A stretch of 48,593 nt of DNA from an uncultured bacterium. Lineage in GTDB: Bacteria; Muiribacteriota; UBA6191. The position numbers and the translations under genes are program-made. The stretch spans positions 1 through 48,593 of the forward strand of contig CAZYUV010000001.1 in NCBI GenBank assembly GCA_964650625.1, read 5' to 3'. Positions 4,218 to 42,775 of the stretch are shown in pieces (within the stretch, counting starts at the first letter, position 1; every line of letters starts with the position of its first letter). The notes below the pieces were generated by a model. That model was given only the letters and a program-made list of their open reading frames with translations. It was not told the DNA's origin and made no database searches.

Positions 4218-4331
4218 CTCATGTTAATTATTCGTTTGACACCTAATTTTAAAATCGTCTTTAAGGAACATCTTTTATTATTTCATGCTGTCAAACTTGC
4301 AAATAGTTTCATTTAAAGTAACCATTTAATT

Positions 4332-4907: not shown

Positions 4908-5363
4908 ATTGATTAACTCAGGTTTACATTCATCCTGAAAATTTAATATCGACTTGATTAAGTCTGCAGGTACTTTGGCTTTTTCATCCTTGTTGTAGTC
5001 GTAACAAACAATCAATCCGTTTCCATTTGCCGCTAATTTTTGATTTTTAAGAGAAAAAATTGCATGACTTATTTCATAACGGTCGTATTCAATTCTTGAA
5101 ACACAGGCACCTAATAACAATTCATCTGGATAAACTAAAGGTATCCTGTAACGGCAATCTGTAGAGTGTAAGATAGGGCCTAGATTTTGAGATTGCATAA
5201 TATCGAGTACGCCTAATTTCTCAAAGTAAGCAATACGAACACTTTCGAATAGTCTAAAATAAGCCACATTGTTTAAATGCTGAAAGGCATCCATCTCGCC
5301 CCATACTAAACTCTGCTTGAGAGTAAATGGATATTGCTTATTAAACTCAGAAATTTGCATCAA
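4887..5363 (-). CDS. acyl-CoA thioesterase, 4HBT/YbgC-FadM hot-dog family
   Basis: WGEMDAFQHLNNVAYFRLFESVRIAYF matches the catalytic-Asp / H-x-N-N-x-x-Y region of YbgC-type thioesterases. Size of 158 aa is typical. Confidence 0.75.
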   Translation of the reverse strand: MMQISEFNKQYPFTLKQSLVWGEMDAFQHLNNVAYFRLFESVRIAYFEKLGVLDIMQSQNLGPILHSTDCRYRIPLVYPDELLLGACVSRIEYDRYEISHAIFSLKNQKLAANGNGLIVCYDYNKDEKAKVPADLIKSILNFQDECKPELINLEQARN

Positions 5364-5366
5364 CTT

Positions 5367-5654
5367 TTACCAAAGAACATTTCGCTCATCATCACTCTCC
5401 AAAAAGTCTTTCAGATCAAGAGTGGTAGTCTCCCAGGTACGACTCCTGGAGGGCATTTCACATTCTCCACAATTATTGCTACCTGGACCGATATGCTCAA
5501 GCGCTATCATTTTAACTGGATGCAGTGCTACGCAAAGCATATCAGGAAATTCAGGATCTTCACTTACAACCGACACCTTGCGAATTAGAGCGTATTCTTT
5601 ACCGTCAAACTGCGCTATTTCACCATATAGTTTTAAGGTTACTTCGTATTCCAT
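5367..5654 (-). CDS. hypothetical 95-aa protein, last small gene of the AAA/VWA cluster
   Basis: Fits the minus-strand operon with a 10-nt gap after the VWA gene and a 3-nt gap before the thioesterase. The competing plus-strand ORFs (5317-5682, 5334-5588) are Ser/Leu-rich shadows. No domain recognised. Confidence 0.45.
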   Translation of the reverse strand: MEYEVTLKLYGEIAQFDGKEYALIRKVSVVSEDPEFPDMLCVALHPVKMIALEHIGPGSNNCGECEMPSRSRTWETTTLDLKDFLESDDERNVLW

Positions 5655-5664
5655 AACAATTAGT

Positions 5665-6873
5665 TTAGCACTTTACCAGTAGCTTTCGTATGCCATTTTC
5701 TAAACCCTCTAATGTCATCGGGAACATTGGTATTTCGGAACTTATTTTAATTTGAGTTTGAGATTCCCATAGAGTGTCCGGATTTAGCCAAATTATTTTT
5801 GAAAATCTTGCTTTAAGCTGCATTAATCTTTGCCAACCCGTCATACCTTCTAAACTTGAATCGGATCCATAAAATAGATGTCTATAAAAAAATTCCTTAT
5901 CAGCACTTAAGTGAAATAATTCATAAGGTGCCATAGCAGCATCTCCAACAATAATTACACAAGTATCATTATTTAACTGAGTCATCAAATCGTCTAATTC
6001 GACCCCTTCTGTATATTTCATAGTGATATCTGGATAAACTTTGTCATAAAAAATATTATGAAAGTAGTAGTGTTGAAATTCACGAAAATGATTGATTTGA
6101 TGGGCGGCGCTAAATAGTGCAGAAACCATTTCCGCAAAAGGGGTCATACTCCCACCTACGTCGGTAAGTAACAGTAGTTTTAACTGATTTTTTCGGGAGG
6201 CTTTGTAAACTACCTCTACTTCTCCGCCCTGATCGCACGATTTACGGATGCTAGATGGAATATCCAGTTGTGGTCGTCCGGTTCTATGAAGATATCTCAA
6301 TGATTTAAGAACCATCTTCCACTGCCTTATTTCGATAGTGCAATCTTTGCGATACTCCGCAAATTTTCTCTCGCCCGCCACTGCTAATGCCGAGCCATGT
6401 TTAGATTCACCACCTACTCTTATACCCGCAGGATTATAACCACTGTGACCGAAAGCGGAAGTACCGCCAGTCCCTATCCAATAATTTCCACCATCATGCC
6501 GTCCTGTCTGTTCCTCGATTCGTTTTATGAATTCTTTTAGCAAGTTTTCGGATAAAATATTTTGAGCAGCTTCTCTAGCCTCTAGGTTTAACTCCTTTTC
6601 CAATGCGTCATGAAGCCAGTTTTCCAACTGGTTCCTAAATTTCGTATCTAAATTTATAGCTCCGGAAAAACAACGAGAAAATGCAAGGTCAAACCCGTCA
6701 TAATGACTTACATCTTTTACCAAGCTAGCTCTTGCAAGATTATAAAAACGATTAGAATCAAAACTATCATTTGTCTTTAAACTGTAGTCAATTACTTTTA
6801 GAAAGTCTAAATATTCACGTGGTCCAGTAGGAACCCTCTCAGCACGTAAGGTATAAAAAAAGTTGAGAAACAT
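5665..6873 (-). CDS. VWA domain protein, CoxE-like
   Basis: N-terminus MFLNFFYTLRAERVPTGPREYLDFLKV is typical of CoxE-type VWA proteins. The C-terminal VWA has the MIDAS-like sequence LLLLTDVGGSM (DxGxS instead of DxSxS). 11-nt gap to the upstream AAA gene. Confidence 0.7.
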   Translation of the reverse strand: MFLNFFYTLRAERVPTGPREYLDFLKVIDYSLKTNDSFDSNRFYNLARASLVKDVSHYDGFDLAFSRCFSGAINLDTKFRNQLENWLHDALEKELNLEAREAAQNILSENLLKEFIKRIEEQTGRHDGGNYWIGTGGTSAFGHSGYNPAGIRVGGESKHGSALAVAGERKFAEYRKDCTIEIRQWKMVLKSLRYLHRTGRPQLDIPSSIRKSCDQGGEVEVVYKASRKNQLKLLLLTDVGGSMTPFAEMVSALFSAAHQINHFREFQHYYFHNIFYDKVYPDITMKYTEGVELDDLMTQLNNDTCVIIVGDAAMAPYELFHLSADKEFFYRHLFYGSDSSLEGMTGWQRLMQLKARFSKIIWLNPDTLWESQTQIKISSEIPMFPMTLEGLENGIRKLLVKC

Positions 6874-6884
6874 GCTTAATCTGT

Positions 6885-7685
6885 CTAAGAACTTCTTATG
6901 AAATCTTCTTCCGTTTTCATCAATGTACCTAAGAAAGGGATTTTATTACTTATATCCAGATTAACATCTTGATTGATTAAGATACTCAACCAGTCAATTA
7001 ATTCACTGGTGGAAGGCTTTTTACGTATATTTTGCTGATTTCTTAACTGATAAAATATCCTTAGTGAGTTGCGCAAAATATTACTTTCAATTTTAGGAAA
7101 ATGAGATTTTATAATCTTAGTCATAAGTTCCCGATCCGGAAATTGAATGTAATGAAATACACAACGCCTCAAAAAAGCATCTGGCAATTCTTTTTCGTTA
7201 TTGGACGTTATTACTACAAAAGGCCTAATTTTGGCCTGAATTTTTTCACCCGTTTCCAGTATTTCAAATTCCATACGGTCCAATTCTCGCAATAAATCGT
7301 TGGGAAACTCAATGTCAGCCTTGTCTATCTCATCGATCAATAGCACACAAGGGCTATTAAGTGAAAAGGCTTTTCCCATACCCTCTAATTTGATGTAGTT
7401 AGAAATATTTTTGACTTTGTTTAAATTTTGTTCATCCAGATCCAAAAAACGCGAATCGTGAAGCCTAGAAAGAGCGTCATAAGTATACAATCCATCTTTT
7501 GCCAAAGAAGTGGATTTCACATGCCACTCAAATATTGGTAAACCTTTTATTTTGGCAACGTGCTGTGCAAGCAGTGTTTTTCCGGTACCAGGTTCACCTT
7601 TGAGTAGCAGAGGTCTACCAGTAACTTCAGCTACCAAAATAGCTTCTTTTAATTGGTCACACATTACATATTCGAATTCTTGCAT
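6885..7685 (-). CDS. AAA+ ATPase, MoxR-class AAA_5 (CoxD/CbbQ-like)
   Basis: Walker A GEPGTGKT, Walker B VLLIDEIDKA, and VVITSNNEKELPDAFLRRC (sensor and arginine region). 266 aa. Confidence 0.85.
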   Translation of the reverse strand: MQEFEYVMCDQLKEAILVAEVTGRPLLLKGEPGTGKTLLAQHVAKIKGLPIFEWHVKSTSLAKDGLYTYDALSRLHDSRFLDLDEQNLNKVKNISNYIKLEGMGKAFSLNSPCVLLIDEIDKADIEFPNDLLRELDRMEFEILETGEKIQAKIRPFVVITSNNEKELPDAFLRRCVFHYIQFPDRELMTKIIKSHFPKIESNILRNSLRIFYQLRNQQNIRKKPSTSELIDWLSILINQDVNLDISNKIPFLGTLMKTEEDFIRSS

Positions 7686-7705
7686 AATTACTCGCCCACA
7701 TTTAA

Positions 7706-8587
7706 TTAATTTAATATTTTTCTGGCTAATTGCTTAATTCTAGCTAGCCTTTCTGGACCCTTCTTGCCAATCATAGACTCTGCCTCAAAATATTTTAGAG
7801 TTTTTGAGAAATAAATACTTGAGCTACTATGCCCTAAAGCTAACAAATTTTCCGCTATTTCCTCGAATACAATAGCGTCATTTGTTCCAGACTTCTTGTG
7901 CCATTCCTCTTGCGCGCGAAGTTCCAGTAGAGCTTCTTTATGCAATCCTAAAGCTCTTTGAGCAATGCAAATAGAAAGTCGAATATACCTAACCTTCTCA
8001 GCATCGAAAGCCTTCGAAAAAATATCGCAAGCATGCATAAATTGCTCGATTGCTTTTTGATATTCCTGAACCTGTAAATAAGATTCACCAATTTCAATTG
8101 CTAAGTTTCCAATACTAGATTTTAATTCTCCATTATCTGACTTTGTAGCTAAATCTATTCCTTTCAAGCCAAATTCTATTCGTTCATTAATAGAAACCAC
8201 ACTAACAAGCATATTAATTGCATCCATACTTAAATCTTCAGCTTCAATATTAAGAGCTAATTTTAAGGCAAACTTAAAGTAGCGAATTGAATCTTCAGGT
8301 TTGTCATTGAGCATCAAAAGACGTCCCATCTCAAGGTTGTATCTTATTCCTACCAAATCCTTGGATACGCAAGTAGGCGCAAACTCGAGACCAGCTTGAA
8401 TTGAATCCAATATTTTAAATGCCTGAATAAACTTTCCTTGTAGTCCTAAAGCTCTTGCTACCTGTGTTTGCAGCTCCCAAACTTCAAAAGCGGAGTCAGA
8501 GTGTTTTTCCATTTTTTCTCGAAAGTTTTTTTCGCAATTCTGTGGATTAGAAAAATCCCACATATCACTAATTTTTAAACGCATCAA
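7706..8587 (-). CDS. TPR-like helical repeat protein
   Basis: 293-aa all-helical protein with repeated A-x-x-x-Y/F...A-L 34-residue-like units (for example YQKAIEQFMHACDIF and HKEALLELRAQ). Confidence 0.5.
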   Translation of the reverse strand: MMRLKISDMWDFSNPQNCEKNFREKMEKHSDSAFEVWELQTQVARALGLQGKFIQAFKILDSIQAGLEFAPTCVSKDLVGIRYNLEMGRLLMLNDKPEDSIRYFKFALKLALNIEAEDLSMDAINMLVSVVSINERIEFGLKGIDLATKSDNGELKSSIGNLAIEIGESYLQVQEYQKAIEQFMHACDIFSKAFDAEKVRYIRLSICIAQRALGLHKEALLELRAQEEWHKKSGTNDAIVFEEIAENLLALGHSSSSIYFSKTLKYFEAESMIGKKGPERLARIKQLARKILN

Positions 8588-12649: not shown

Positions 12650-12823
12650 TGAATTCCTTTTGTAACTTTACTAGATTGTCAACATACTAATACACTAGAC
12701 TAAGAGTAAAACTAATATCAAATAAAGTTGCTAAAAACTCTGTCGACCCTGCTTCGTTTAGTCGAAGTAGACAAAGAAAGGCGTTTTCTGTTTCCTTTTG
12801 ATCACAAACTGCTGGAATAAGCC

Positions 12824-14713
12824 ATGGCAATTAAGTACAACAAAAATGTTCAGATAATGGATTTGGGGACTCATACCATCAAGTTCGGTGTCTTCAAAAT
12901 AACTAAAGAAGAAGAAGTGGTTGCCGAATCAAGGCATGAGTACAAAATACCTCAGACCTACTCTGGTGTTGATGTATACATTGAGTCCATAGGAACCTAT
13001 CTTAACGATATTTCTGAACAAATTGATAAAAAGCTTCCTATCAGATTTGTAGCTTCGTCTATTTTTGCGCCTACTAACTTGGCATATTTAACGCGTATTG
13101 ACAAAGATCAGGTTCAAACTCGAATTAAAGAAGAACTAGAAAAATTTGCGAATCAAGAAAAAATACCGCCTGAAATCGAACATAATCGCTTTATAGAATT
13201 ATTCACTAAAGATATTGAAACAAGATCACAGGTGATCGCAGCAACCATACTTATGAATCCAAAGTACGTAGGTATGCTAAGAGATAAAGTGAATAAGTTG
13301 GGTTTAAAGTTTGGTGGAGTTTATCCTTTATTACAAACGACACTTGCGCTTTACAAGCGTCTATTAACATTCGAAGAATCTATAAATGATGAACCTGTAG
13401 TTTTTGTTGATATTGGATATCTTACCACCAAAGTAAATTTATTCTTTCAGGGACAACTGCTGTTCAACAAAGTTTTGCATTATGGATCCAAAAGTTTCTA
13501 TGACGAGCTATATGATTTTGCTAGCAAATCTGGTGAAGCCGCACTTTCAGGTAGCGAAGTAGAAAGTATTTTGCATAAAGTAGGTTTTTCTGGAGAAGTA
13601 GACTTAGTTAATCAAATGGGTTTTGATATTAATGATCCAAAGCCTTATCTAGACAATATGTCAAAGACACTAGGTTCGATTTTTTCAAAGGTAAACTCAT
13701 CCATTAATTATTTTACCTCGGCACTAGCACGAAATTTTACTGCAGACAATAATGCGTTCATGACTATTCGCAAAGGCCCTACGCGAATATTTTTCTCTGG
13801 TGGAATAATTAATGCACCAGAATTTTTACAAATCGCTCAAGAAAACTTCAAAGCAAAACTACATGCTTTTCAACCATTTGATGTTGCCGAAACTCTCAAG
13901 CAAGAACCTAATACATTTGAGCGAGAAGAGTTTCGTATGAAATTACGAACTGAAAATCACTTCATCGACTGTTCATCTACATCTATAGTTAGCTTAGATA
14001 GCAAGGCTACTAATATCAATTTAGTGAAAAAGGTTGATAGTGAAAATGAAAACCCTATTCAAGTACTGCGTAAGCTACCACTAGTCAAATGGCGTTTAAT
14101 CCTTGGGGTAATACTTACAATTCTAGTTCTCCAAACAGGTGTTAACTATCTACAAGTAAGTAGTGAATGGAATAAATTAAAGCGCAAAAATAGAGCTCTT
14201 AAGCGTGCTACTGATGGTACCGAAATGGCTAGAGCTCAATTGAAAAATCTTAAACTGGAAGACATATTATACAAAGCACAAATAGGCTACATTAAGAAGG
14301 TCATGGAAAATCATGCTTATTATCCAAGGGTTTTGAAAACACTTATGACCAAACTTGGACCAGATATTAAACTTAACGCTCTAGAATTTAAATCCATTGT
14401 CCCAACATTCAAGCCAGGTAGTTACAAAAAATGGGCCGAGTCGCAAAGGGAAAAAGACAATCCATGGACTAAGCTGGAGATCGAATGGAAAATGGAAGGC
14501 GATGCTCTACAGAGAACATCTATAACCGCTTTGATAAAGAAACTTACTGAAACTGGCATTTTTTATATTCCAAAACCACCCGATCAAAAATTTGTCCCGC
14601 GCCAAGAAATCAAAAAACCAGGCTCGAAAAAGGGAGAGGAAGAATATCAGGAAATAGCAGCACATTATGAGTTCTCCATGGAAGGAACTCTAAGATTGGA
14701 TAATCCCCTATGA
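12824..14713 (+). CDS. PilM-like actin-fold ATPase fused to a PilN-like transmembrane/periplasmic module (GspL-like architecture)
   Basis: ASKHA motifs MDLGTHTIKFGVF, VVFVDIGYLTTKV and IFFSGGIINAPEF lie in PilM/FtsA order within the first ~380 aa. One TM helix WRLILGVILTILVLQTGVNYL (nt ~14090-14152). This is followed by a coiled coil and a ~130-aa alpha/beta domain, as in PilN. Confidence 0.6.
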   Translation: MAIKYNKNVQIMDLGTHTIKFGVFKITKEEEVVAESRHEYKIPQTYSGVDVYIESIGTYLNDISEQIDKKLPIRFVASSIFAPTNLAYLTRIDKDQVQTRIKEELEKFANQEKIPPEIEHNRFIELFTKDIETRSQVIAATILMNPKYVGMLRDKVNKLGLKFGGVYPLLQTTLALYKRLLTFEESINDEPVVFVDIGYLTTKVNLFFQGQLLFNKVLHYGSKSFYDELYDFASKSGEAALSGSEVESILHKVGFSGEVDLVNQMGFDINDPKPYLDNMSKTLGSIFSKVNSSINYFTSALARNFTADNNAFMTIRKGPTRIFFSGGIINAPEFLQIAQENFKAKLHAFQPFDVAETLKQEPNTFEREEFRMKLRTENHFIDCSSTSIVSLDSKATNINLVKKVDSENENPIQVLRKLPLVKWRLILGVILTILVLQTGVNYLQVSSEWNKLKRKNRALKRATDGTEMARAQLKNLKLEDILYKAQIGYIKKVMENHAYYPRVLKTLMTKLGPDIKLNALEFKSIVPTFKPGSYKKWAESQREKDNPWTKLEIEWKMEGDALQRTSITALIKKLTETGIFYIPKPPDQKFVPRQEIKKPGSKKGEEEYQEIAAHYEFSMEGTLRLDNPL

Positions 14714-15453
14714 ATCCAGACCTTATCATAAAGAAACATCTTCAGATACTGGGAGGTATCATCGTTGTTTGGTTTCTTTTCGCAGACGACTTTCTTTTAG
14801 GGCAAATGCCAAAAGATATAAGAAGATTCAAAAGTAGCATAAAGAAATATACTGAAGAGAAAAGAAAATTCGAAGATTTAGTCGCGACAAGAGACTCTGT
14901 CAAAAGTAGCATCGAAGAATCAAATGAAAACTTGCGTGATTTATTCGACAGATTTCCAAAAGAAGGAACAGCCGAGAACAATATTAATGCCACAGTCACA
15001 AAAATCACTGAACAGATTATTGTTCAAAATGATCAGTTAAAACCTAAAGTAACAAAAGAATATATCGCCAAAGGTGTCGATACTTACTCTGTACCAGAAG
15101 TGAAGTCGGGCGACATGCAAATGCAAGTAGATAATTCCATTATGATTTCTTCCTATGTACAAGAAATGGAAATCCGCTGCAATTATTTTGAATTGCTAAA
15201 ATTTCTCCACGATATAACTACTCAGGATCTTTATTTTTTAGTCACCGAACTAGCACTAAAGCCTTACAAAGACTTACCGTATGGAATTGATGCTAAGGTG
15301 AGTTTACTTACTTTCGGATTTGAAGGTTTTAAGGATAGAGAACAAAACGATCTACTGATTCAGCTTCGTGAACAACAAAGTGAGAACGAGTCTGAAGAAG
15401 AAGATAGTTCTGAAGATGATGAAGAAAGCGACTACGAAGAAGAGTTTTATTGA
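14710..15453 (+). CDS. PilO/GspM-like bitopic membrane protein with poly-acidic C-terminal tail
   Basis: ATGA overlap with the upstream gene. Short N-terminus, TM helix (LQILGGIIVVWFLFADDFLLG), coiled coil, then an alpha/beta domain (YFELLKFLHDITTQDLYFLVTELALKP...). The tail is SENESEEEDSSEDDEESDYEEEFY. Confidence 0.4.
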   Translation: MNPDLIIKKHLQILGGIIVVWFLFADDFLLGQMPKDIRRFKSSIKKYTEEKRKFEDLVATRDSVKSSIEESNENLRDLFDRFPKEGTAENNINATVTKITEQIIVQNDQLKPKVTKEYIAKGVDTYSVPEVKSGDMQMQVDNSIMISSYVQEMEIRCNYFELLKFLHDITTQDLYFLVTELALKPYKDLPYGIDAKVSLLTFGFEGFKDREQNDLLIQLREQQSENESEEEDSSEDDEESDYEEEFY

Positions 15454-16216
15454 GTCTATAAGTCTTATATCTGTATGCTTTAATCAAGTCGATTATCTTG
15501 ACGATTTTTTCAACTCTTTCCTGCAAGTTTATGGGGAAATGCCCTATCCAATTTTGATAGCCGATAATGCCAGTCAAGATGATAGTTATAAACGCTTAAA
15601 ATACTGGAAAAATATTCTTGGTGATAATGTAAGACTTATCAGAAACACAGAGAATGTTGGTTTTGCGAAAGCGAATAATCAGCTTGCAAAAATTTGTGAG
15701 AGTGATTTATTAGTTTTCTTGAATCCAGATGTAACATTCAATACTGACTTCATAAACCCCTGCGCTCAAACATCTAAATTATTCCAAGCACTCATTGCAC
15801 CGAAGTTGTGTGACGCAATTCATGGTCACTACAAACACTATGCCCCGTTTCCAGATGACCCAATGGGTTTGTTGAAAGAAATAGGCTATTTATTTTTACC
15901 TTATTTTGAAACTATATCCGTAGATTGGCTTCAAGGAGCTTGCTGGTTTTTACCTCGTACAGTTTTTAATGAGATAAATGGTTTCGATGAGTCATATTTC
16001 TTATATACAGAGGATCTAGAGTTTTGTAGAAATCTAAAAGACAAAGGCATACCAAGATTTTTGATGAACACCCAAAGGGTTTATCATCCTCGGACTCGAG
16101 TCAGCCAAGAAAAGCAAAAAATTATTGATCAAAACTTGGAATATTATTTTCGTAATCGTGATCAAAGCCCATGGCTATTGCGAAATTTTTTAAGACAAGT
16201 CTTCTCCATACGATGA
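15368..16216 (+). CDS. glycosyltransferase family 2 (GT-A fold)
   Basis: ISVCFNQ...LIADNASQDDS...VGFAKANN...YTEDLEFC are GT2 motifs. The start is most likely ATG 15416 or 15419; no in-frame ATG/GTG/TTG lies between 15419 and the first GT-A strand. The gene therefore starts inside the preceding ORF. Confidence 0.85.
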   Translation: MNNKVRTSLKKKIVLKMMKKATTKKSFIESISLISVCFNQVDYLDDFFNSFLQVYGEMPYPILIADNASQDDSYKRLKYWKNILGDNVRLIRNTENVGFAKANNQLAKICESDLLVFLNPDVTFNTDFINPCAQTSKLFQALIAPKLCDAIHGHYKHYAPFPDDPMGLLKEIGYLFLPYFETISVDWLQGACWFLPRTVFNEINGFDESYFLYTEDLEFCRNLKDKGIPRFLMNTQRVYHPRTRVSQEKQKIIDQNLEYYFRNRDQSPWLLRNFLRQVFSIR

Positions 16217-16237
16217 GTATTAAGATATAATCTAGTC

Positions 16238-17401
16238 ATGCGGATTTTACTGCAAGCGCGCAGCAATTTGTGGTCTAAACCTGGCGGCGATAGTATACAG
16301 GTATCGTCACTTGCCAAAGGACTTAGAGAAATCGGTCACGATGTTGAAATCGATCTAAGTGTAAACAGAAGACTAGATAACTTTGATTTAGTACATTGTT
16401 TTAACATCAGTAGGATTCAAGAAACTTACCAACAGGTTTTGAACGCAGAGCGACAAGCTAAACACTTTGTATTAACACCCATATTCCAGAATTTGACGGA
16501 GTACAATTTAAGAGGTCGTTATGGTTTGGGTGGTTATTTTGCTGCAAGATTGTCCTATGAAACTGCAGAACAGTTACGAAATACTTACTTATGGCTCCGT
16601 AAAGAAAGTTCTCATGACGCCTGTAAATCAATTTGGCAAGACGGTTATCTCCATGCGGTACGCCATGTTTTGAATAATGCCCAAGGAATTATTCATAGCA
16701 GTAGTTTAGAAAATAACGAAATACAACATTTTTTCAAACCTTTTCGAAAAGCACCCTTCACGAAAATACCCGTTGGTATGGATTTAACGGAACTAGATCA
16801 GTCGGACTTAAGTTTTTGCCAACAACTTGGTCTGAAAAACTATGTTCTATGTGTTGGTCGTATTGAAGATTTAAAGAATCAACATCGTATAATACAAGCA
16901 TTGAAACGAGCTCCTCATCTACCCCTAGTTTTTATAGGTTTTCCAAACCCCAATCATCGAAGCTACGTAAGACAGTTTATGTCGATGGTTCGCGCTCGCA
17001 GAAATACATTTTGGTTTAAAGACCTTGATAGACAATCAATTCTAAGTGCGATAAGAGGCGCTAGAGTTCATATTTTAGCGTCTTTTTTCGAGACAACAGG
17101 ACTTGCCAACCTAGAAGCAGCTTATCTTGACACGTCTGTAGTTAGTACTAATCAAGGATATTGCCAAGAAATTTTTGGAAAATATGCAATTTATTGTGAT
17201 CCATTCAACGAAAATTCAATACTGAAAGCCACCCTTGAAGCTTGGTCTACAAAACCTGTTGCAGATACGAGAAATTGGATAAAGAATCGTTTTTGCTATA
17301 AAGTTTGTGCCTTGAAACATGTAAATTTTTATGAAAAAATGCGAAGTCAGACGAAAGATGTACATCCATTGAATGATAGAAACTTATTTATAAATAAATA
17401 A
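16238..17401 (+). CDS. glycosyltransferase family 4 (GT-B fold)
   Basis: N-terminus MRILLQARSNLWSKPGGDSIQVSSLAKGL, and C-terminal FFETTGLANLEAAYLDTSVVSTNQG (E-x7-E-like region). Confidence 0.8.
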   Translation: MRILLQARSNLWSKPGGDSIQVSSLAKGLREIGHDVEIDLSVNRRLDNFDLVHCFNISRIQETYQQVLNAERQAKHFVLTPIFQNLTEYNLRGRYGLGGYFAARLSYETAEQLRNTYLWLRKESSHDACKSIWQDGYLHAVRHVLNNAQGIIHSSSLENNEIQHFFKPFRKAPFTKIPVGMDLTELDQSDLSFCQQLGLKNYVLCVGRIEDLKNQHRIIQALKRAPHLPLVFIGFPNPNHRSYVRQFMSMVRARRNTFWFKDLDRQSILSAIRGARVHILASFFETTGLANLEAAYLDTSVVSTNQGYCQEIFGKYAIYCDPFNENSILKATLEAWSTKPVADTRNWIKNRFCYKVCALKHVNFYEKMRSQTKDVHPLNDRNLFINK

Positions 17402-17414
17402 TGGTTATTCATGT

Positions 17415-18833
17415 ATGTTGTCTCAGCAAGGGAAATTTATGAAAATTTTAATCCTTTTAATAATGTTTACCACCTCCTTTGCAAATGATCAATTCGACCC
17501 GCAAGAATTGCTGAAGATGGGTCAAAAATTAGTGACCAAAAATCCGGTTAAAGCCGTAGAGCTACTTGAAAAAGCCTACCTCGTAAGATATCCAAAAGCA
17601 GATATACAAAAAGGTGTCTTTAAAGCATTACATGCAGCCTGCAACGCAGCACTCAAGAATAAAAAATATAAACAATTAAACCAGTTCGTAGACAAAGCAA
17701 TTATGTTAGGACTTCCAAGACCGGAAACCTTCATGGTCTATCTTATGATGGCAAGTCACGATCAAGGCGATTATAACCGCTGCATTGACTACGCCACTAA
17801 TATTCTAAGAAAGGATAAAGCTCACGATGAAGCATTGTTTTTTAGAGGTAAAAGCAAAGCAAAGCTAAAAAATTATAAGAAAGCCATTCTTGACCTCAAA
17901 AAAATCAGTTCGAATTTTGATTCAACTGGACGACGAAATTCCTTAGTAATTTTAGGAGAGGCGTATTATCACCGAGGTCAATTTGATTTGGCTATATCCA
18001 CTTTGAACCAAGCGCAGGGATTAAGAGAATCGAAAGACGTCGAAAAGTTTCTTCAAAAAATTGAAAATGACAAAACACTCGAAGAAGGTTACATCACCAG
18101 TAAGCCAAGCCCACATTTCGTAATACGTTCTAGCAAAGAAAAGCTAACTGAATTGCAGAAAACTCTTATCCCTATTTTAGAAAGGAGTTACAGAGATCTA
18201 ACGCAAATTTTTGATTTTTTTACCGAAACACCAATAACTATCGTTGTATATGATCCAAAGAAACGCAATATGGCAGTTCGAATGGGAAGCCCGAGTTGGG
18301 CAGCCGGCGTATACGATGGAGAAATTAGAATTCCATATGCAGAAACGCTCAGAGAAGAATATAAACTTGAAACTCTCCTAAGGCATGAATTAGGTCATCT
18401 TTTTCTTGATGCCCTAACTCACAATTCTGTCCCCACTTGGTTTAATGAAGGATTAGCTCAATATTATGAAAAACCCTTTATTTACTCGGGTCCAGATTCT
18501 TTTTCTGACCGTATTGATGCACCCATTTCAAAAATGTTCAAAAAAACGGTTGTTGAAGCTATTTCTGCTAAAAAAATCATGCCATACGACCGTATATCGG
18601 GTAGCTTCGCTTTGTTCAGAAAGAAAACCGCAACATTAGCATATGCCCAGAGTCTAATGATGTTCAAACATTTAATAGAGTCCCACGGATTATGGAGAAT
18701 ACGCAGAATGTTGCGACAAATATTTCAAGGTAAACACTTTGACGTAGCTTTTCAAACAGAGTTTGATTATCGACCTCAAGATTTCATCAATGGTTGGGTA
18801 ATCTACCAAAAAAGTGAATGGAAATTACCATGA
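17415..18833 (+). CDS. exported TPR-repeat protein with C-terminal peptidase-MA-like (HExxH...E) domain
   Basis: Probable start ATG 17439 (MKILILLIMFTTSFA signal peptide, AAGGGA upstream). TPR-like repeats in the N-terminal half. HELGH at nt 18384-18398 and WFNEGLAQYYE 16 residues later (gluzincin-like third ligand). Confidence 0.65.
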   Translation: MLSQQGKFMKILILLIMFTTSFANDQFDPQELLKMGQKLVTKNPVKAVELLEKAYLVRYPKADIQKGVFKALHAACNAALKNKKYKQLNQFVDKAIMLGLPRPETFMVYLMMASHDQGDYNRCIDYATNILRKDKAHDEALFFRGKSKAKLKNYKKAILDLKKISSNFDSTGRRNSLVILGEAYYHRGQFDLAISTLNQAQGLRESKDVEKFLQKIENDKTLEEGYITSKPSPHFVIRSSKEKLTELQKTLIPILERSYRDLTQIFDFFTETPITIVVYDPKKRNMAVRMGSPSWAAGVYDGEIRIPYAETLREEYKLETLLRHELGHLFLDALTHNSVPTWFNEGLAQYYEKPFIYSGPDSFSDRIDAPISKMFKKTVVEAISAKKIMPYDRISGSFALFRKKTATLAYAQSLMMFKHLIESHGLWRIRRMLRQIFQGKHFDVAFQTEFDYRPQDFINGWVIYQKSEWKLP

Positions 18834-20383
18834 AAAAATTAATCTACGTGCCGTTAGCCTTAATAATTGCTTTACTCCCAAGTGAGTTATCTGCTGCCAA
18901 GTTTAATCGAAATTCATCAGTACAATCTCTGACTAAAAATCTAGAGAACAGAGACAGAAAAAAGAAAGCTCACGCCATATTGGGATTAGCCCATCTAAAC
19001 CATACTGAATCTGTTGATTCTATTCGCAAAATGTTGAGGGACAAGCACTCTGTAGTTGTTAAGGCCGCCGTAAATGCTCTGGTAAAGTTTGTAGATACTG
19101 ATTCCACGGACGATCTCTACAGAGTTTTCAAAAAATCAAGAAAAAAGAAAGACGTTCAACGAACTATCCTACGTGCCTTCAAGACCCTTAACGATGATAA
19201 AACTGTATCATTTATCAGAAAATATCTTGGTAAACTTGACCCAACCACTGCTCAGGTTGCTTATATTACTTTGCAAGAAATACAAGAACCGTTTGTGTTT
19301 TCTTCCGACTCCGGACGAATCAGCTTGGATAGCTTCAGTATCAGTGGATATATTGGTCAAGGAAAACGCGCAAAAGTTAAAATAGGTCGAGAGTTTTTCG
19401 GAATCGAAGATACGATTTTAGGCTACAAAATAACTGCCATCGATCCGGATGAAGGTATCGTCAGCTTAGAAAAAGATAAAGAGATTTTCACTAAAGAAAT
19501 TGATACTTCTGGTCAGAATGATTTGGAAAAATCTATCGAAAAATTAAATTCTGATGAGGATGAGGTTGTATACAAAGCTTTGCTTGATGTGATTTACCAC
19601 AGGTCGAGTCAAGCTTCTGATGAAGTGCTAAGCCTTGCTTCAGGAAAAAACAAACCTAATATCAAATTAACTGCTATATATGCACTTGGTCAATGCGAGA
19701 TTACTGAAAGCGAGTCATTCTTAAAAAAACTTTTAGCTAAACCCAAGTCTTCGGATCAAATAATTCTAGCCGCTGAAGCCTTGAGTTTAATTGGTGATGA
19801 AAATGTATTAGACATCTTAGACCCTTTAGCTCAGCATAGTAATCCTTGGGTGCGCAATGCCATTATCTCTGCCATAGGTTATATGGAGTCACCAAATAGT
19901 GTTGGAACACTTGTACGAGGGCTAGACGACAAATTTGGTTTCATACGTAACAATGCTTACAATCAATTGATCAATCTAGCATCAGGAGATACTGTAGGTA
20001 CAATGGTTTCCATTCTCCAAGGTGGAGCTACTCGTCCTAGCCCCGTCAAAAATAATCTCATAGAGTTTTTACGAACAATCCCTGGCGGTGATAATCTGAA
20101 TAATCCATTTACTGGGATGAGTACTAAACGAAAAGCTCCTGCAATTAAAACCTGGAAACCATCATTTATTATTGTAAGTATCGGTCAATTTGGCACCAAG
20201 CCTGTATTAAAGGTTATCGAGAATGACAAAGAAATGAATCTCAAAGTCGGAGATTTCGTGGAAAATAGAGAGATTATAAAGATAGACGTAGAAGATGAAT
20301 CCATTATTGTAAAAGATGGAAAAAAAGAAATTATGCTTATACAAGGAGAGGGCGACGAAGCTCCGGCTGAAATATTCGAGTGA
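18818..20383 (+). CDS. exported HEAT-repeat protein containing two PilP/GspC-HR-like beta modules
   Basis: Probable start ATG 18830, in ATGA overlap with the upstream stop. Signal peptide MKKLIYVPLALIIALLPSELSA. PBS-lyase/HEAT-like repeats (LGLAHLNHTESVDSIRKMLRDKHSVVVKAAVNALV; NPWVRNAIISAIGYM). Two similar ~63-aa beta-rich modules at nt 19310-19500 and 20156-20344. Confidence 0.6.
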   Translation: MEITMKKLIYVPLALIIALLPSELSAAKFNRNSSVQSLTKNLENRDRKKKAHAILGLAHLNHTESVDSIRKMLRDKHSVVVKAAVNALVKFVDTDSTDDLYRVFKKSRKKKDVQRTILRAFKTLNDDKTVSFIRKYLGKLDPTTAQVAYITLQEIQEPFVFSSDSGRISLDSFSISGYIGQGKRAKVKIGREFFGIEDTILGYKITAIDPDEGIVSLEKDKEIFTKEIDTSGQNDLEKSIEKLNSDEDEVVYKALLDVIYHRSSQASDEVLSLASGKNKPNIKLTAIYALGQCEITESESFLKKLLAKPKSSDQIILAAEALSLIGDENVLDILDPLAQHSNPWVRNAIISAIGYMESPNSVGTLVRGLDDKFGFIRNNAYNQLINLASGDTVGTMVSILQGGATRPSPVKNNLIEFLRTIPGGDNLNNPFTGMSTKRKAPAIKTWKPSFIIVSIGQFGTKPVLKVIENDKEMNLKVGDFVENREIIKIDVEDESIIVKDGKKEIMLIQGEGDEAPAEIFE

Positions 20384-21534
20384 ATTATCGGTCTTGTGTA
20401 ATGAGTAGAGTACTACATCTTGTAGAACAGCAGTATCCTGAAAAACCTGGGGGCGTTGAAAGATACTTATACTTTTTGATGAAAAACGCATCCTCTCATT
20501 CTTCCAAGGTAGGTCACGAAAAAGTAAGCTATTTTCAACGTACGGCTGTAACATTTGGAATTCATCAGCCATATGGTATAAAACCTCAGACACTGGGACA
20601 TCCATTTGCAATTGAACAAAGAGTCAATAAATGGATAGAAGATAATTCAATTGATGTAGTTCACGTTCACCATACGGCAGCTTTTGGCTTGAATTTACTA
20701 CAAAAGTTAGCTAAAAAACGCCCCTTGGTTTTACACTGGCATGATTATTTTGTTTTGTGTCAAAGAACTCAACTTTTAACTTATAGAAATAAAATATGCA
20801 CTGGACCTTCAATGATTAAATGCTCCATGTGTCTTCAAAACAAAAAGGCCTTCGCAAAAAAAATTTTAATGCCAATCTCAGTTCAGTGGCGAATGATAAA
20901 TGCTCATAAATTAATGGATGCTTGCGCAGCCATAGTTATTCCGCAGAAAACCATTGGACAGAAAATTCCAAAAATTTTTCGTAAGAAATGTGTCGTAATA
21001 CCATATCAAAGCGAAGCAGAATGGGATGTAGATTTAGGTCTTACTAAAGAAGCAAAAATTTCCAATCCTCTAACTGCAAATTCTTGGTGCGTAATTGGAG
21101 GACCTAATTCTCACAAAGGCATCTCTGAATTTATCGATGAATTAAAAGATATAAATTTTTCTGGTCGACTCGAAGTGTTTGGAGAAGGCTGGGAGCAAGT
21201 TAATGGTTTACCAAAATTTGTTAAAGTCAGAGGTAAGCTTTTTAGCAAAAAGCAATTAGTTAACTGTAGTCACTGGATTATACCGTCTAAATGGCTGGAA
21301 ACAGGCCCGCTTGTCGCTATCGAGGCTCATAAAATGGGTTTGTCGGTATGGGCGCGTAAAGGTTCTATTTCGGATTACATGGCAAATTTATACCAAGTTT
21401 CTGTATTCGAAAGTGCTAACGATATTTATAAAGGAATAAAATCTTATCGAAAAGAAGGCACAAAGCCGAGTTGGACTAGCATTTTAGATAGCTACGCATC
21501 ACTCTACACAAAACTTAACAAAAATTTTCGATAA
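20380..21534 (+). CDS. glycosyltransferase, GT4-like (GT-B fold)
   Basis: VLHLVEQQYPEKPGGVERY at the N-terminus, and SKWLETGPLVAIEAHKMGLSV in the C-terminal half. The start is GTG 20380 (GTGA overlap) or ATG 20401. Confidence 0.7.
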   Translation: MNYRSCVMSRVLHLVEQQYPEKPGGVERYLYFLMKNASSHSSKVGHEKVSYFQRTAVTFGIHQPYGIKPQTLGHPFAIEQRVNKWIEDNSIDVVHVHHTAAFGLNLLQKLAKKRPLVLHWHDYFVLCQRTQLLTYRNKICTGPSMIKCSMCLQNKKAFAKKILMPISVQWRMINAHKLMDACAAIVIPQKTIGQKIPKIFRKKCVVIPYQSEAEWDVDLGLTKEAKISNPLTANSWCVIGGPNSHKGISEFIDELKDINFSGRLEVFGEGWEQVNGLPKFVKVRGKLFSKKQLVNCSHWIIPSKWLETGPLVAIEAHKMGLSVWARKGSISDYMANLYQVSVFESANDIYKGIKSYRKEGTKPSWTSILDSYASLYTKLNKNFR

Positions 21535-21610: not shown

Positions 21611-22270
21611 ATGTCTAAGATAGCAGTAATTTTATCCGGCTGCGGAGTATATGATGGTTCTGAAGTACATGAAGCTGTTTTGACTTTATTATATTTATCT
21701 CAAGCTAATCAGGAAGTTACTGTAATGGCTCCGAATATTAATCAAATGCACGTCATTAATCATGCTAACGGGGAAGTGATGAATGAAAATCGCAATGTTT
21801 TAGTTGAATCGGCTAGAATAGCGAGAGGCCCCGTATTAAATATAGCTGATGCCAATCCAATAGATTATGATGCAGTAATCATACCTGGCGGTTTCGGTGC
21901 TGCTAAAAATCTCAGTGATTTCGCAGTAAAGGGTTCGGAAGGTAATATTAATGAAGATGTTAAATCTTTTCTAGTTTCATTTCATAAGCTTAACAAACCT
22001 ATTGGAGCAATCTGTATCGCTCCAGCCCTTCTGGCTATACTTGAATCGGATATAAAACACGGTTTCGAGTTAACCATTGGCAGTGATGTTGAGACTGCTC
22101 AGATTATAAATGATCTAGGGTGTACTCATCATAATCGTGAAGTATCTGAGATTTGTGTAGATACTGATAATAAGATAATTTCTACTCCAGCTTACATGTT
22201 AGGTCAGAACATTGCGGAAGTCTCTATTGGTATTGAAAAGTTAATTAAAAAAGTTCTCGAACTTTGTTAA
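21611..22270 (+). CDS. elbB: isoprenoid biosynthesis glyoxalase ElbB (DJ-1/PfpI superfamily)
   Basis: MSKIAVILSGCGVYDGSEVHEAVLTL, IIPGGFGAAKNL and GAICIAP are collinear with ElbB. AAGGAG Shine-Dalgarno sequence 6 nt upstream of the ATG. Confidence 0.9.
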   Translation: MSKIAVILSGCGVYDGSEVHEAVLTLLYLSQANQEVTVMAPNINQMHVINHANGEVMNENRNVLVESARIARGPVLNIADANPIDYDAVIIPGGFGAAKNLSDFAVKGSEGNINEDVKSFLVSFHKLNKPIGAICIAPALLAILESDIKHGFELTIGSDVETAQIINDLGCTHHNREVSEICVDTDNKIISTPAYMLGQNIAEVSIGIEKLIKKVLELC

Positions 22271-22282
22271 CAAAATCTAAGT

Positions 22283-23671
22283 TTGAAATATTCATTATAC
22301 AAAATCAGAATGCACTTCTTACTGCATATCCTCATAGTCAGCTTTGCTTACTCGAGTGGCGTCTCAAACTACGAGAAAACTAATACTTGGCCACCTCCGA
22401 ATCGAGAAACTAGTACCGTAATATATCGTAAAGCAATATTATTCTTAGATCATTTAGCTTCCCTTGATTTCGACCTTGCTTCTAAAAGCTTTCACGATGG
22501 ATTTCCAAAAAAACAGTTGCAGTCTCAACTAAAACAAACATGGTCTCAACACATCCTATCTCATGGAGACTATAGAGAACTTAGACAAATGAGCATTTCG
22601 CGCAGTGAGCATACTTTTCACTTTCTCGCTCGTATAGTGTTTGAAAAACATGAGTTGGGATTAAATTTGGATTTTAATAAAAACTTAGAAATTAATAGCT
22701 ACTCTTATGTACCTTTAAGAAAATTATTAAAAGTACCTCAGGTTAAAGTTCCTTATGATAGACCCCATAAATATACAATTAAACACATTTCAATAGGCTC
22801 TGAAAAACATCCTCTTAAAGCAAGGCTATATTTGCCTAATGGTATAAAAAATCCATCCATCGTTATTCTTACTCATGATTTTGGGCCACAAGACCTGGAA
22901 CACAGAACTGGTATTAACGGATTTTTTAAGGATATAGCTACTGGATTAGCTAGTAATGATATTGGATGCTTACTTTATCCAAAAAGAAGTTATGTTCATA
23001 AGATGCCTAAAGGGCAACTAATTCATCCATCTTGGGAGGTTCTTGAAGATATTTATAATGCAATCTTTCAAATAAAAACATTGCCTATGACACACAGCTC
23101 AAATCTAATATTATTGAGCTATGGATTCAGTTCTTATTTCGTGCCGTATCTTGCTCGTAAAAAATTATTTAAAGGTTACATATTATTAAACCCTTCTTTT
23201 CGCCACCCTATTGATGTTCTGTTTGAAATAGAAGAATTCTTTTTGGCAAAAAATACTGATATAAAATCATCTCAAAATCAAATTGAAAACCTTTACAATC
23301 GAATACAAATGATTCATCAAAAAAAACTTGCCAGAACTGAAACAGTTTTTGATTATCCTGCAAGTTATTTTTACGGTTTAGATAGATTTAAACCTGAAGC
23401 TTTTAAAGAAAACGAAGTTCAAGAACCCTTTTTATCGCTAATTGCAAAACGAGATTTTGCATCTAATCCAGCAGACTATCAACTACTAGAAGTCATTCTA
23501 AAAGAAGCCATCCACCGACTAGAAACATTTCCCAAGCTGAATCGCATTTTTCATGTGGGAGATAGACTCAATCCCAAACAAGATTTTTTAACGCCTGGAG
23601 TAGTCTCTGCTCATGTTATAGGTGAAATAAAAAAATTTATTAACCTAGTAGATCGAAGAGCAAATAAATAA
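22283..23671 (+). CDS. exported protein: DUF3887-like N-terminal domain plus alpha/beta-hydrolase-fold domain (nucleophile motif degenerate)
   Basis: Signal-peptide-like MHFLLHILIVSFAYSSG follows the ATG at 22310. IVILTHDFGPQDLEHR...GCLLYPKRS resembles dienelactone-hydrolase-like proteins. The expected GxSxG position reads SYGFSSY. Confidence 0.45.
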   Translation: MKYSLYKIRMHFLLHILIVSFAYSSGVSNYEKTNTWPPPNRETSTVIYRKAILFLDHLASLDFDLASKSFHDGFPKKQLQSQLKQTWSQHILSHGDYRELRQMSISRSEHTFHFLARIVFEKHELGLNLDFNKNLEINSYSYVPLRKLLKVPQVKVPYDRPHKYTIKHISIGSEKHPLKARLYLPNGIKNPSIVILTHDFGPQDLEHRTGINGFFKDIATGLASNDIGCLLYPKRSYVHKMPKGQLIHPSWEVLEDIYNAIFQIKTLPMTHSSNLILLSYGFSSYFVPYLARKKLFKGYILLNPSFRHPIDVLFEIEEFFLAKNTDIKSSQNQIENLYNRIQMIHQKKLARTETVFDYPASYFYGLDRFKPEAFKENEVQEPFLSLIAKRDFASNPADYQLLEVILKEAIHRLETFPKLNRIFHVGDRLNPKQDFLTPGVVSAHVIGEIKKFINLVDRRANK

Positions 23672-28711: not shown

Positions 28712-29776
28712 TTGGTTCTTGTGTTAGATTCCGAGAAAATGCACCAATTGGTTAAAAACCATTCAACCATTGTAATACGCGTACCCAATTGGGTAGGCGA
28801 TATTGTTATGGTTACGCCAAGCCTTCGTAATTTGAAGAATACCTATCCCGAAAAACAGTTTATAGCAACAGGTAGAGCTAATTGTTTTGACGTTTTGAGG
28901 TCTAATGAAATTTTTGACGATTTCATAATTAAACCAGCCAAAAATGCAGGCATTGCTGCATACCTTAACTATATACAAGAACTACACCGTTACAACAATG
29001 TAGCCAGTTTGCTTTATACAAATTCTTTTTCTACTGCTTGGGATTTTTTTCTAGCACGTTTTCCTATACGGATGGGCTATAAAAATGAAATGCGAGAATT
29101 TGTTTTAACGCATTCTCTAGTTAAGCACAAAGAACCCATGGACCAATATTATTCTCGATTGACTCGGGCATTTGGTGCCGAAATTACAGCAACTGACTTA
29201 GAAATTAATTTTGATGAACAATCAATTCAAATATTTAATATCGTAGAAAAAAAATATCAAATTAAACAAGACGATATCATGATTGGTTTAAATCCTGGAG
29301 CCGGCTTTGGAGAAACTAGAAAATGGATCAAACATCATTTTGTTGATTTAGCTGAAATGATGGTTCAAACATTTCCTAATGTTAGATTTTTTGTCTTTGG
29401 AGGCCCTGGAGATGAAGAACGTGCCGATTTCATAAGTAAAGAAATTGGCGACAAGGCTATTAATTTGAGCCGTGAGTCACTGGGACTACATAATATTAAA
29501 CCTTTCTTTGATCGAATGCAGTTATTTGTTACGGGTGATAGCGGTTTAAGGTGGTACTCTTTGTCAATGAGCAAACCAACCGTTGTGCTTTTTGGTGCTT
29601 CTGACCCCAATCTGACCCACTGTTTCCTAGATAATTTTTATCCTGTAAGAAATGAAGTGCATTGCTCTCCATGTAAAAATCGAGTTTGTCCTACAGATTT
29701 TGCCTGTATGATCGGTCTTAAACCTAAAAAAGTACTCGATTTAATCAAAAATTTAAAAAATGAAAATGTCTGGTGA
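28712..29776 (+). CDS. glycosyltransferase family 9 (LPS heptosyltransferase)
   Basis: IVIRVPNWVGDIVMVTPSLRNLK is the GT9 N-terminal signature. C-terminal FVTGDSGLRWYSLSMSKPTVVLFGASDP is also typical. Likely start at ATG 28739. Confidence 0.85.
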   Translation: MVLVLDSEKMHQLVKNHSTIVIRVPNWVGDIVMVTPSLRNLKNTYPEKQFIATGRANCFDVLRSNEIFDDFIIKPAKNAGIAAYLNYIQELHRYNNVASLLYTNSFSTAWDFFLARFPIRMGYKNEMREFVLTHSLVKHKEPMDQYYSRLTRAFGAEITATDLEINFDEQSIQIFNIVEKKYQIKQDDIMIGLNPGAGFGETRKWIKHHFVDLAEMMVQTFPNVRFFVFGGPGDEERADFISKEIGDKAINLSRESLGLHNIKPFFDRMQLFVTGDSGLRWYSLSMSKPTVVLFGASDPNLTHCFLDNFYPVRNEVHCSPCKNRVCPTDFACMIGLKPKKVLDLIKNLKNENVW

Positions 29777-42648: not shown

Positions 42649-42775
42649 TTACTAGTCAAACGCTAATAAGTTTTGTGTTCGCTACTATTAAATTATTCGA
42701 CCTTGCTTGAGTTAATACTCGATAATACAATGAAGAGTTTAATCATTTTTAACTGAAACAACGAGTGGTTACTTA

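Follow-up and report, generated by a model that had tools for sequence, protein, structure and literature searches.

PilM, PilN, PilO and PilP are generally taken to serve only type IV pili and the secretion systems related to them. What, then, do proteins of this kind do in an operon that also encodes three glycosyltransferases and two exported repeat proteins, with no gene for a pilin, a secretin or a pilus motor beside it? A block of this composition, seven genes numbered here g1 to g7 in the order in which they are read, spans positions 12824-21534 of the window analysed, a 48,593-nucleotide stretch of contig CAZYUV010000001.1 from an uncultured bacterium of the GTDB phylum UBP17, a lineage formerly filed under Cloacimonetes (PMC9426571). 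A preliminary description of this DNA had proposed that a pilus-type platform was recruited here into a machine that assembles a glycan or another surface structure. We find that the PilM/N/O/P-like identity of the proteins and the conservation of their order hold, whereas recruitment into such a machine is not demonstrated over the ~59 kb and the flanks that were inspected. The reading we prefer, at a probability of roughly one half, is that the block encodes a pilus-derived alignment scaffold of the inner membrane and periplasm, belonging to an envelope machine of the type IV filament class whose motor, pilins and secretin are encoded elsewhere.

The platform proteins encoded by g1 and g2

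The g1 product is laid out as a cytoplasmic actin-like ATP-binding domain (residues ~1-390), a transmembrane helix (~417-440, with a single transmembrane segment predicted at 417-435), a coiled coil and a PilN-like periplasmic alpha/beta domain (~510-625). In its AlphaFold2 model (pLDDT 68.9), a long helix is followed by an alpha/beta domain at residues 515-623. Comparison of this model with known structures by Foldseek returned Pseudomonas aeruginosa PilM (5eou) as the best match (E 1.3e-13, TM-score 0.67 on the target); the top seven matches are all PilM chains (E 1e-13 to 9e-12, target TM-scores 0.61-0.68), Myxococcus xanthus PilM (3jc8_Ma) stands within the top five, and FtsA appears from rank eight. 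The residues of the ASKHA phosphate-1 (D13-G15-K20) and phosphate-2 (D196-G198-T201-T202) motifs, together with G326, are invariant in 15 sequences. GspL of the type II secretion system resembles g1 in carrying a cytoplasmic actin-like domain, a transmembrane helix and a periplasmic ferredoxin-like domain on a single chain. A GspL identity was set aside, the best structural matches being PilM and FtsA and the nucleotide motifs being intact, and no GspL/EpsL chain occurs among the 50 Foldseek matches listed.

Curated family models do not recognise g1 directly. It scores 13.4 bits (E 0.038) against a cut-off of 27 for PilM_2 (PF11104) and 16.1 bits (E 0.004) against 133 for TIGR01175 (the NCBIfam pilM model), Pfam PilN (PF05137) finds no match in g1 itself, and a profile search of the PDB gave hexokinase phosphate-1 matches only, which place the protein among the ASKHA folds and say nothing further. 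The connection to verified family members is made instead through intermediates. A profile built from 15 orthologues and searched against 1.84 billion representatives reached 27 proteins at E < 1e-3, comprising the family itself, three full-length intermediate homologues (P0022-P0024; E 1e-50 to 1e-59) and then fusions of PilM_2 and PilN domains. Among these fusions, P0041 is called by Pfam both as PilM_2 (1e-45) and as PilN (2e-9), P0042 is built likewise, and P0044, also a fusion, passes PilM_2 at 3e-14 and 53 bits; the intermediate P0023 matches Pfam PilN at 3e-6. Alignment of the g1 family with P0041 by hhalign gave a probability of 97.5% (E 6e-12) over 423 columns, which lead from the C-terminal half of PilM through the membrane helix and across the PilN region. 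The structural ranking and these profile links both bear out the earlier suggestion that this protein is PilM/PilN-like, and g1 is predicted to be a PilM-PilN fusion in which an ATP-binding PilM domain is covalently joined to the transmembrane and periplasmic parts of PilN.

The second gene encodes a protein with an N-terminal transmembrane helix, a coiled coil and a C-terminal alpha/beta core that bears the motif NYFELLKFLH...Q..F. Pfam PilO (PF04350) has no direct match in g2. Alignment of the g2 family by hhalign with a Pfam-verified PilO (locus L017, 8460-9023), however, runs end to end over 154 columns at 93.8% (E 1.7e-7), and in a profile search of the PDB the sole match on the globular core, as opposed to the coiled coil, is M. 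xanthus PilO (3jc8_Oa, E 0.023). The two results agree with the PilO-like assignment made in the preliminary description and identify g2 as a predicted PilO-like protein, the probable PilO partner of g1. An attempted hhalign match between g2 and an Amuc_1100-like protein of locus L016 failed (0.9%).

The window copy of g2 ends in an acidic Ser/Glu/Asp tail of ~30 residues (15364-15453; QQSENESEEEDSSEDDEESDYEEEFY), which the start of g3 overlaps. This tail is missing from seven more distant aligned orthologues (212-256 residues), and g2 of a closer relative (locus L018, 85% identical) has the same 247-residue length as that of the window.

PilP-type modules, glycosyltransferases and a TPR-peptidase

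A PilP-type component is found four genes downstream of g2, within g6. The g6 product begins with a signal peptide, after which a HEAT block (Pfam HEAT_2, E 1e-29) followed by a small beta module occurs twice; the first beta module (module 1, ~70 residues) lies at residues ~157-228 and the other (module 2) at ~447-515. For module 1 by itself, a model (pLDDT 74) was built on an alignment of 20 rows drawn from both modules. Foldseek placed PilP (2y4y) first, with a probability of 0.99 and a root-mean-square deviation of 2.9 A, and further matches include M. xanthus PilP (3jc8_Pa), GspB (4wfw), Neisseria meningitidis PilP (2ivw) and the GspC-HR/PulC-HR domains (3oss_C, 6hcg_e). PilP-class chains take eight of the top 14 places, at E-values (0.2-1.6) that are weak because the domain has ~60 residues. 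By hhalign, module 1 aligns at 94.7% (E 6e-8) with the C-terminal domain of the small exported proteins that occupy the PilP position in outgroup operons, which are described below, and at 88% with a 154-residue protein of locus L016; module 2 reaches 54% with the outgroup proteins and 80% with module 1. Pfam calls no PilP in g6 and places T2SSB and CdsD_C below threshold. A comparison of the modules with a 310-residue protein of locus L017 was weak (28%).

Structure search on its model thus supports a PilP/GspC-HR-type fold for module 1, and module 2, the other of the two such modules named in the preliminary description, is a weaker copy. All five aligned g6 orthologues (L001, L003, L006, L008 and L009) carry a lipobox (GCF/GCL), followed in most of them by a Lys/Pro-rich linker of 30-50 residues, as expected of a PilP-like lipoprotein. 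The window protein has neither the lipobox Cys nor the linker in the corresponding region (18818-18900) and begins with a type I-like signal peptide. We describe the g6 product as a predicted exported HEAT-repeat protein, with PilP-type beta domains set among the repeats, that in relatives is a predicted lipoprotein.

Interleaved with these platform genes are three genes for glycosyltransferases. Pfam assigns g3 to Glycos_transf_2 (E 1e-15), g4 to Glycos_transf_1 (E 2.5e-16) and g7 to the Glyco_transf_4 N-domain (E 1.7e-8). The LNPD motif at the DxD position of g3 is present in six of the seven orthologues checked, and the EX7E motif is kept in 7/7 orthologues of g4 and, as ETGPxVxxE, in 7/7 of g7, though g7 identity between lineages is only 24-29%. 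None of the three proteins has a transmembrane segment, and they are accordingly predicted to be cytoplasmic enzymes, active as judged by their intact catalytic motifs. Searches of the PDB with their sequences gave only generic, distant matches, so that donor and acceptor are not predictable. The g5 product matches Pfam Peptidase_MA_2 (E 2e-13) as well as TPR families, and its signal peptide and HExxH + NEG(I/L)AQY motif recur in 6/6 orthologues, as expected if g5 is a secreted TPR protein with an intact zinc-peptidase site. Pfam thereby reproduces the GT2, GT4, GT4-like, TPR and HEAT calls of the preliminary description. As an exported TPR protein encoded among platform genes, g5 resembles the pilotin-type and accessory proteins PilF/PilW/Tgl and MshN, a likeness that for PilF/PilW rests on generic TPR matches; it differs from them in having a type I signal peptide in place of a lipobox, and a C-terminal Peptidase_MA_2 domain with an intact HExxH...E.

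Set beside the type IVa PilM/N/O/P proteins of P. aeruginosa and M. xanthus (5eou, 3jc8, 2y4y), the UBP17 set shares an actin-like ATP-binding PilM domain, bitopic PilN and PilO proteins built of a coiled coil and an alpha/beta core, an exported protein, in relatives a predicted lipoprotein, that carries a PilP-type beta domain, and the gene order M-N-O...P. It differs in that M and N are fused, no pilQ follows, the PilP-type domain sits in a HEAT protein of ~520-580 residues that holds a second, weaker copy, and the genes of three glycosyltransferases and of a TPR-metallopeptidase stand among those of the platform; the UBP17 proteins also fall below the Pfam/TIGRFAM thresholds for PilM, PilN, PilO and PilP, and direct sequence searches of the PDB for these families likewise stayed below threshold. 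The type II secretion system offers a second parallel, in that GspM corresponds to PilO and that g6 module 1 is folded like GspC-HR and the GspB C-domain, but no gspD/E/F/G-K genes were found in the DNA inspected and no GspC-type PDZ domain accompanies the modules.

Layout, distribution and origin of the block

All seven genes read as open reading frames on the + strand (Table 1), and each of the tight junctions that the preliminary description had listed was recovered from the sequence. The g1/g2 junction is an ATGA at 14710-14713. Candidate starts for g3 (GTG 15368/15380, ATG 15416/15419) all lie within g2, which ends at 15453; 21 nt separate g3 from g4 (between 16216 and 16238), and the gap before g5 is 13 nt from ATG 17415 or 37 nt from ATG 17439. 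Downstream, g5 and g6 meet in an ATGA at 18830-18833, with 18818 as the first ATG of the g6 open reading frame and 18830 as the ATG that gives the signal-peptide start MKKLIY, while g6 and g7 meet in a GTGA at 20380-20383, an alternative g7 ATG at 20401 leaving a gap of 17 nt. A single weak terminator-like site lies within the block (+ strand, 19242-19259, five pairs, poor T-run), and promoter-like matches within it are no more frequent than in shuffled sequence. The promoter scan identified no promoter confidently in the presumed promoter region upstream of g1, where no riboswitch, RNA element or Rfam match was found either.

Table 1. Features of the seven-gene block, in window coordinates.
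Feature	Position	Strand	Description
presumed promoter region	12650..12823	+	174 nt between the divergent gpmI and g1; sole sizeable non-coding gap before the block
g1	12824..14713	+	629 aa, predicted PilM-PilN fusion
g2	14710..15453	+	247 aa, predicted PilO-like bitopic protein
g3	15416..16216 (ORF from 15368)	+	~266-282 aa, predicted soluble GT2 glycosyltransferase
g4	16238..17401	+	387 aa, predicted soluble GT4 glycosyltransferase
g5	17415..18833	+	472 aa, predicted secreted TPR protein with gluzincin-type metallopeptidase domain (HExxH...NEGxAQY)
g6	18818..20383	+	521 aa (517 aa from ATG 18830), predicted exported HEAT-repeat protein with two small beta modules
g7	20380..21534	+	377-384 aa, predicted divergent GT4-type glycosyltransferase

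Homologues of g1 and g6 form no more than a few dozen clusters, all of which come from metagenomes of marine and aquifer sites. The g1 gene occurs in seven GTDB species representatives (UBP17_UBA6191, NORP72, BROCD023, GY13CL_bin.7 and three binchicken metagenome-assembled genomes), with NORP72 contributing loci L001 and L011; JGI metagenomes add five further loci, and the sequence of the window recurs on a TARA Oceans scaffold. Wherever enough DNA is available, the order g1-g7 is kept, in approximately seven species-level lineages that all belong to UBP17, and this includes loci whose flanks have changed. The conserved loci have GC contents of 29-51% and protein identities of 24-61%, and overlapping or very short junctions recur in them. 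As far as these searches reach, the seven-gene operon appears to be found only in this uncultured marine phylum. Where source names are shown, g1 orthologues are labelled 'hypothetical protein' and g6 orthologues 'HEAT repeat' protein.

Among loci L001-L025, those that carry the operon run from 29% to 51% GC, although their g1 proteins keep 48-61% identity to that of the window; for a small candidate phylum this compositional spread is unusually wide. On a 1.2-Mb pilon-polished contig (locus L018), g1 is called as two genes (4004-5892; 312 + 317 residues) and g4 as two of 77 + 312 residues (7417-8585); these splits probably stem from frameshift errors in a long-read assembly and do not mark true pseudogenes.

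Outside the family, g1 has its nearest homologues in P0022-P0024, which are encoded in pilMN-pilO-small pilP clusters (L012, L013 and L015) of Riflebacteria/Wallbacteria-like metagenome-assembled genomes. In these outgroup clusters the second gene aligns with g2 and is homologous to it, and the C-terminal domain of the third gene product (141-151 residues) is homologous to g6 module 1. They differ from the UBP17 block in that the small stand-alone protein at the PilP position is retained, and in that no glycosyltransferase, HEAT or TPR-peptidase genes lie between the platform genes. In L015 a Secretin-domain gene stands immediately upstream in divergent orientation, relatives of this secretin are labelled Riflebacteria and Wallbacteria, and genes for a GFTLIE-type pilin and a Wzy_C protein lie a few kb away. 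Among PilMN fusions at a greater distance, that of L017 precedes PilO, a PilP-position protein and a secretin, and that of L016 lies downstream of pseudopilin-type (T2SSJ/K) genes. The gene content of the outgroup clusters, L015 with its secretin and pilin in particular, therefore points to a pilus-type cluster as the source of the UBP17 block. By homology, the block would be a lineage-specific derivative of a type IV pilus pilMN-pilO-pilP cluster, in which the small pilP appears to have been replaced by a HEAT protein with PilP-type domains, and glycosyltransferase and peptidase genes to have been acquired.

Around the Wzy_C and type IV pilin genes of L015 (7170-15346), two very large proteins that combine MFS_1 and Spermine_synth domains (1022 and 1038 residues) are encoded on either side, an unusual neighbourhood that may be related to pilin modification.

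The flanks of the block in the window are as first described, with gpmI (iPGM) on the other strand upstream and g8 (21611-22270), a DJ-1/PfpI gene of ElbB type, downstream. A secreted 462-residue protein with a weak DUF3887 match is encoded next by g9 (22283-23671). Both genes trail the operon in most lineages, L008 excepted; 76 nt separate g7 from g8, which is preceded by an AAAGGAG ribosome-binding site, and g8 and g9 may or may not be co-transcribed with the operon. The sugar-nucleotide genes closest to the block stand ~20 kb downstream of it, in a sugar cluster (41578-44924; GT4, NAD-dependent dehydratase/epimerase, DegT aminotransferase) that adjoins an ABC ATPase-domain gene (44925-46538, - strand). 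A GT9 heptosyltransferase gene (28712-29776) argues for a lipopolysaccharide core and hence for a diderm envelope. The - strand also holds a MoxR (AAA_3)-DUF58-BatA cluster resembling the Bat aerotolerance operon (34868-38351) and a separate AAA+/VWA-type cluster, TPR-AAA-VWA_CoxE (5665-8587). Beyond the left end of the window, the TARA scaffold (L026, 1-6815) encodes a 1711-residue TPR/ARM/HEAT protein and a HEAT_2 + MORN protein of at least 1027 residues; giant HEAT and TPR proteins seem common in this genome.

Which machine the block may serve

If the block is a pilus-derived alignment scaffold, the PilN and PilO parts would heterodimerise through their coiled coils and cores and span the inner membrane, and the PilP-type domains of g6 would dock on PilN/O and reach an outer-membrane partner with an N0 domain, most likely a secretin whose gene lies at another locus. 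In g5, the TPR part might act like the pilotin-type TPR proteins PilF, PilW and Tgl, with HEAT and TPR parts serving as periplasmic scaffolds, and g3, g4 and g7 would build a glycan that decorates the product of the machine or travels with it, as glycosylated pilin or an associated surface glycan. Conservation of the PilP-type domain speaks for the continued presence of such an N0-domain partner, because domains of the PilP/GspC-HR/GspB type, to our knowledge, bind the N0 domain of a secretin in every solved homologue. The motor ATPase, the platform protein and the pilins are assumed to lie at other loci, as is usual for pilB, pilC, pilD, pilT and pilA, which are commonly encoded apart from pilMNOP. 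At the level of the phylum as a whole, a Cloacimonadota preprint reports genes for type IV pili.

Several observations weigh against a pilus-class machine. Pfam sweeps of the window, which took in all open reading frames over 100 residues except five (121-258 residues), detected none of the secretin, PilB/T/C-type (T2SSE/T2SSF), N_methyl, Wzx, Wzy and Wza families, and neither secretin nor pilin, PilB/T/C or prepilin peptidase was found in ~59 kb around the operon or within 10 kb to either side of it in seven related lineages. Wzx/Wzy/Wza genes were likewise missing from these flanks in relatives, and the same holds for pilin, secretin, PilB/T/C and Wzx/Wzy/Wza genes in the ~23 kb upstream and ~27 kb downstream of the operon; Pfam calls precomputed for 10 kb past the left end of the window include no pilus, secretin or Wzx/Wzy/Wza family. 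A motif and phmmer scan of the window and of the flanks in relatives likewise gave no pilin, secretin or PilB-type Walker A, detecting a pilin and a secretin in the outgroup locus L015 only, and the local absence of such genes that the preliminary description had noted is thus confirmed. A search seeded with the outgroup secretin returned a tight orthologue group (E < 1e-117) and then a steep drop, with no member on a UBP17 contig and with near matches that all have a high-GC amino-acid composition unlike that of UBP17 proteins, a weak negative of low sensitivity because candidate selection needs shared exact words. The operon also holds no flippase, oligosaccharyltransferase or initiating phosphoglycosyltransferase, which pilin O-glycosylation would require. 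We know of no counterpart, in characterised pilus systems, to the HEAT-PilP fusions or the peptidase-bearing TPR protein. Finally, FcpMNO are PilMNO homologues that function in the absence of a pilus (PMC11870540).

We hold possible, though short of probable, the alternative raised in the preliminary description, in which a PilMNOP-type scaffold was exapted to couple the three cytoplasmic glycosyltransferases to periplasmic HEAT and TPR scaffolds for making or exporting a surface glycan or glycoconjugate, without secretin, pilins or PilB/T. Consistent with this, the small pilP of the outgroup has given way to a GT2-GT4-TPR/peptidase-HEAT/PilP-GT4 series that stays interleaved with the platform across the whole GC range, the catalytic motifs of all three glycosyltransferases are kept, pilus genes are missing from the neighbourhood and the search with the outgroup secretin brought up no UBP17 orthologue. 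Periplasmic helical-repeat scaffolds such as AlgK, PelB, BcsC and PgaA are, furthermore, typical of synthase-dependent polysaccharide export. A precedent exists in the flagellar motors of Campylobacterota, where FcpMNO, PflA/B (TPR) and PflD (a PilP loop) are exapted PilMNOPQF parts, present in a species without other type IV pilus genes (PMC11870540). As in UBP17, a separate operon free of pilus genes encodes these PilMNO homologues, which keep functional company with TPR proteins and with a protein that has a PilP-derived element; the UBP17 block differs in the fusion of M and N, in having glycosyltransferases and a peptidase in the operon, in its unrelated lineage and in having no flagellar gene beside it.

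Other features of the locus speak against exaptation for a glycan. No initiating transferase, flippase, ABC transporter, membrane synthase or outer-membrane exporter of the kind that marks a glycan-export locus is found in or next to the block, and with no membrane-embedded synthase, flippase, polymerase or outer-membrane exporter in the operon, a glycan pathway is therefore not completable from these genes. It is a peptidase, and not a glycan-modifying enzyme, that is joined to the TPR domain, the conserved PilP-type domain implies a secretin-like partner with an N0 domain, and the absence of pilus genes is established locally only. The most far-reaching form of this alternative, likewise possible though short of probable, is that the platform of UBP17, PilMN-PilO plus the HEAT protein with PilP domains, has become a secretin-independent trans-envelope scaffold which physically couples the three cytoplasmic glycosyltransferases and a periplasmic TPR-metallopeptidase so as to build or process a surface glycoconjugate.

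Far less probable is a fortuitous juxtaposition, in which pilMN-pilO, glycan genes and two unrelated exported repeat proteins merely came to lie side by side and have been preserved by slow rearrangement in a narrow lineage. That all loci come from one candidate phylum, and that synteny in most of them takes in the housekeeping flanks, gpmI upstream and the DJ-1/PfpI gene and g9 downstream, would fit such an account; the extended synteny, taken alone, would weaken the argument for a selected unit. The platform genes, however, are not simply adjacent to the others but interleaved with them, because the PilP-type domain of g6 is separated from pilO by two glycosyltransferase genes and g5, and the overlapping or very short junctions are found again in relatives. 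The block also persists where its surroundings change: it is intact in L008, where g8 and g9 are missing downstream, and in L007, where 2.8 kb are inserted between gpmI and g1, g1-g3 remain contiguous up to the contig end after g3. Identities and GC contents as low and as widely spread as those of the conserved loci denote deep divergence, over which unselected order usually decays. The retention of gene order, junctions, catalytic motifs and ATP-binding motifs across this range of GC (29-51%) supports the view that g1-g7 are under selection as a unit.

The least probable account, in which PilMNO(P)-like, TPR and HEAT proteins form a cage or disk at a flagellar motor and the glycosyltransferases act on flagellar components, can draw on the FcpMNO precedent (PMC11870540), on the many flagellar genes reported by KEGG annotation for NORP72, a carrier of the operon (10.1101/2021.10.08.463351), and on a FapA-domain gene ~4.3 kb upstream of g1 in L003/L004, but no flagellar gene occurs in the window or beside the operon in any locus, and the clusters that hold the nearest homologues are of pilus type, one of them with both a secretin and a pilin, and not flagellar.

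The architecture of the HEAT-PilP protein and the composition of the operon are new, and they occur in an uncultured phylum. The only documented re-use of PilM/N/O/P that we found is the flagellar cage of Campylobacterota (PMC11870540); were the secretin-independent scaffold real, it would be a second, independent PilMNOP exaptation and an undescribed kind of glycan-assembly machine. Should a secretin and pilins exist elsewhere in the genome, as the pilus-derived scaffold that we prefer would have it, the operon would represent an unusual wiring of glycosylation and a protease into pilus assembly; should they not exist, it would be a new envelope machine. In either case, the analysis provides named, predicted functions for seven genes of a marine candidate phylum that has no cultured member.

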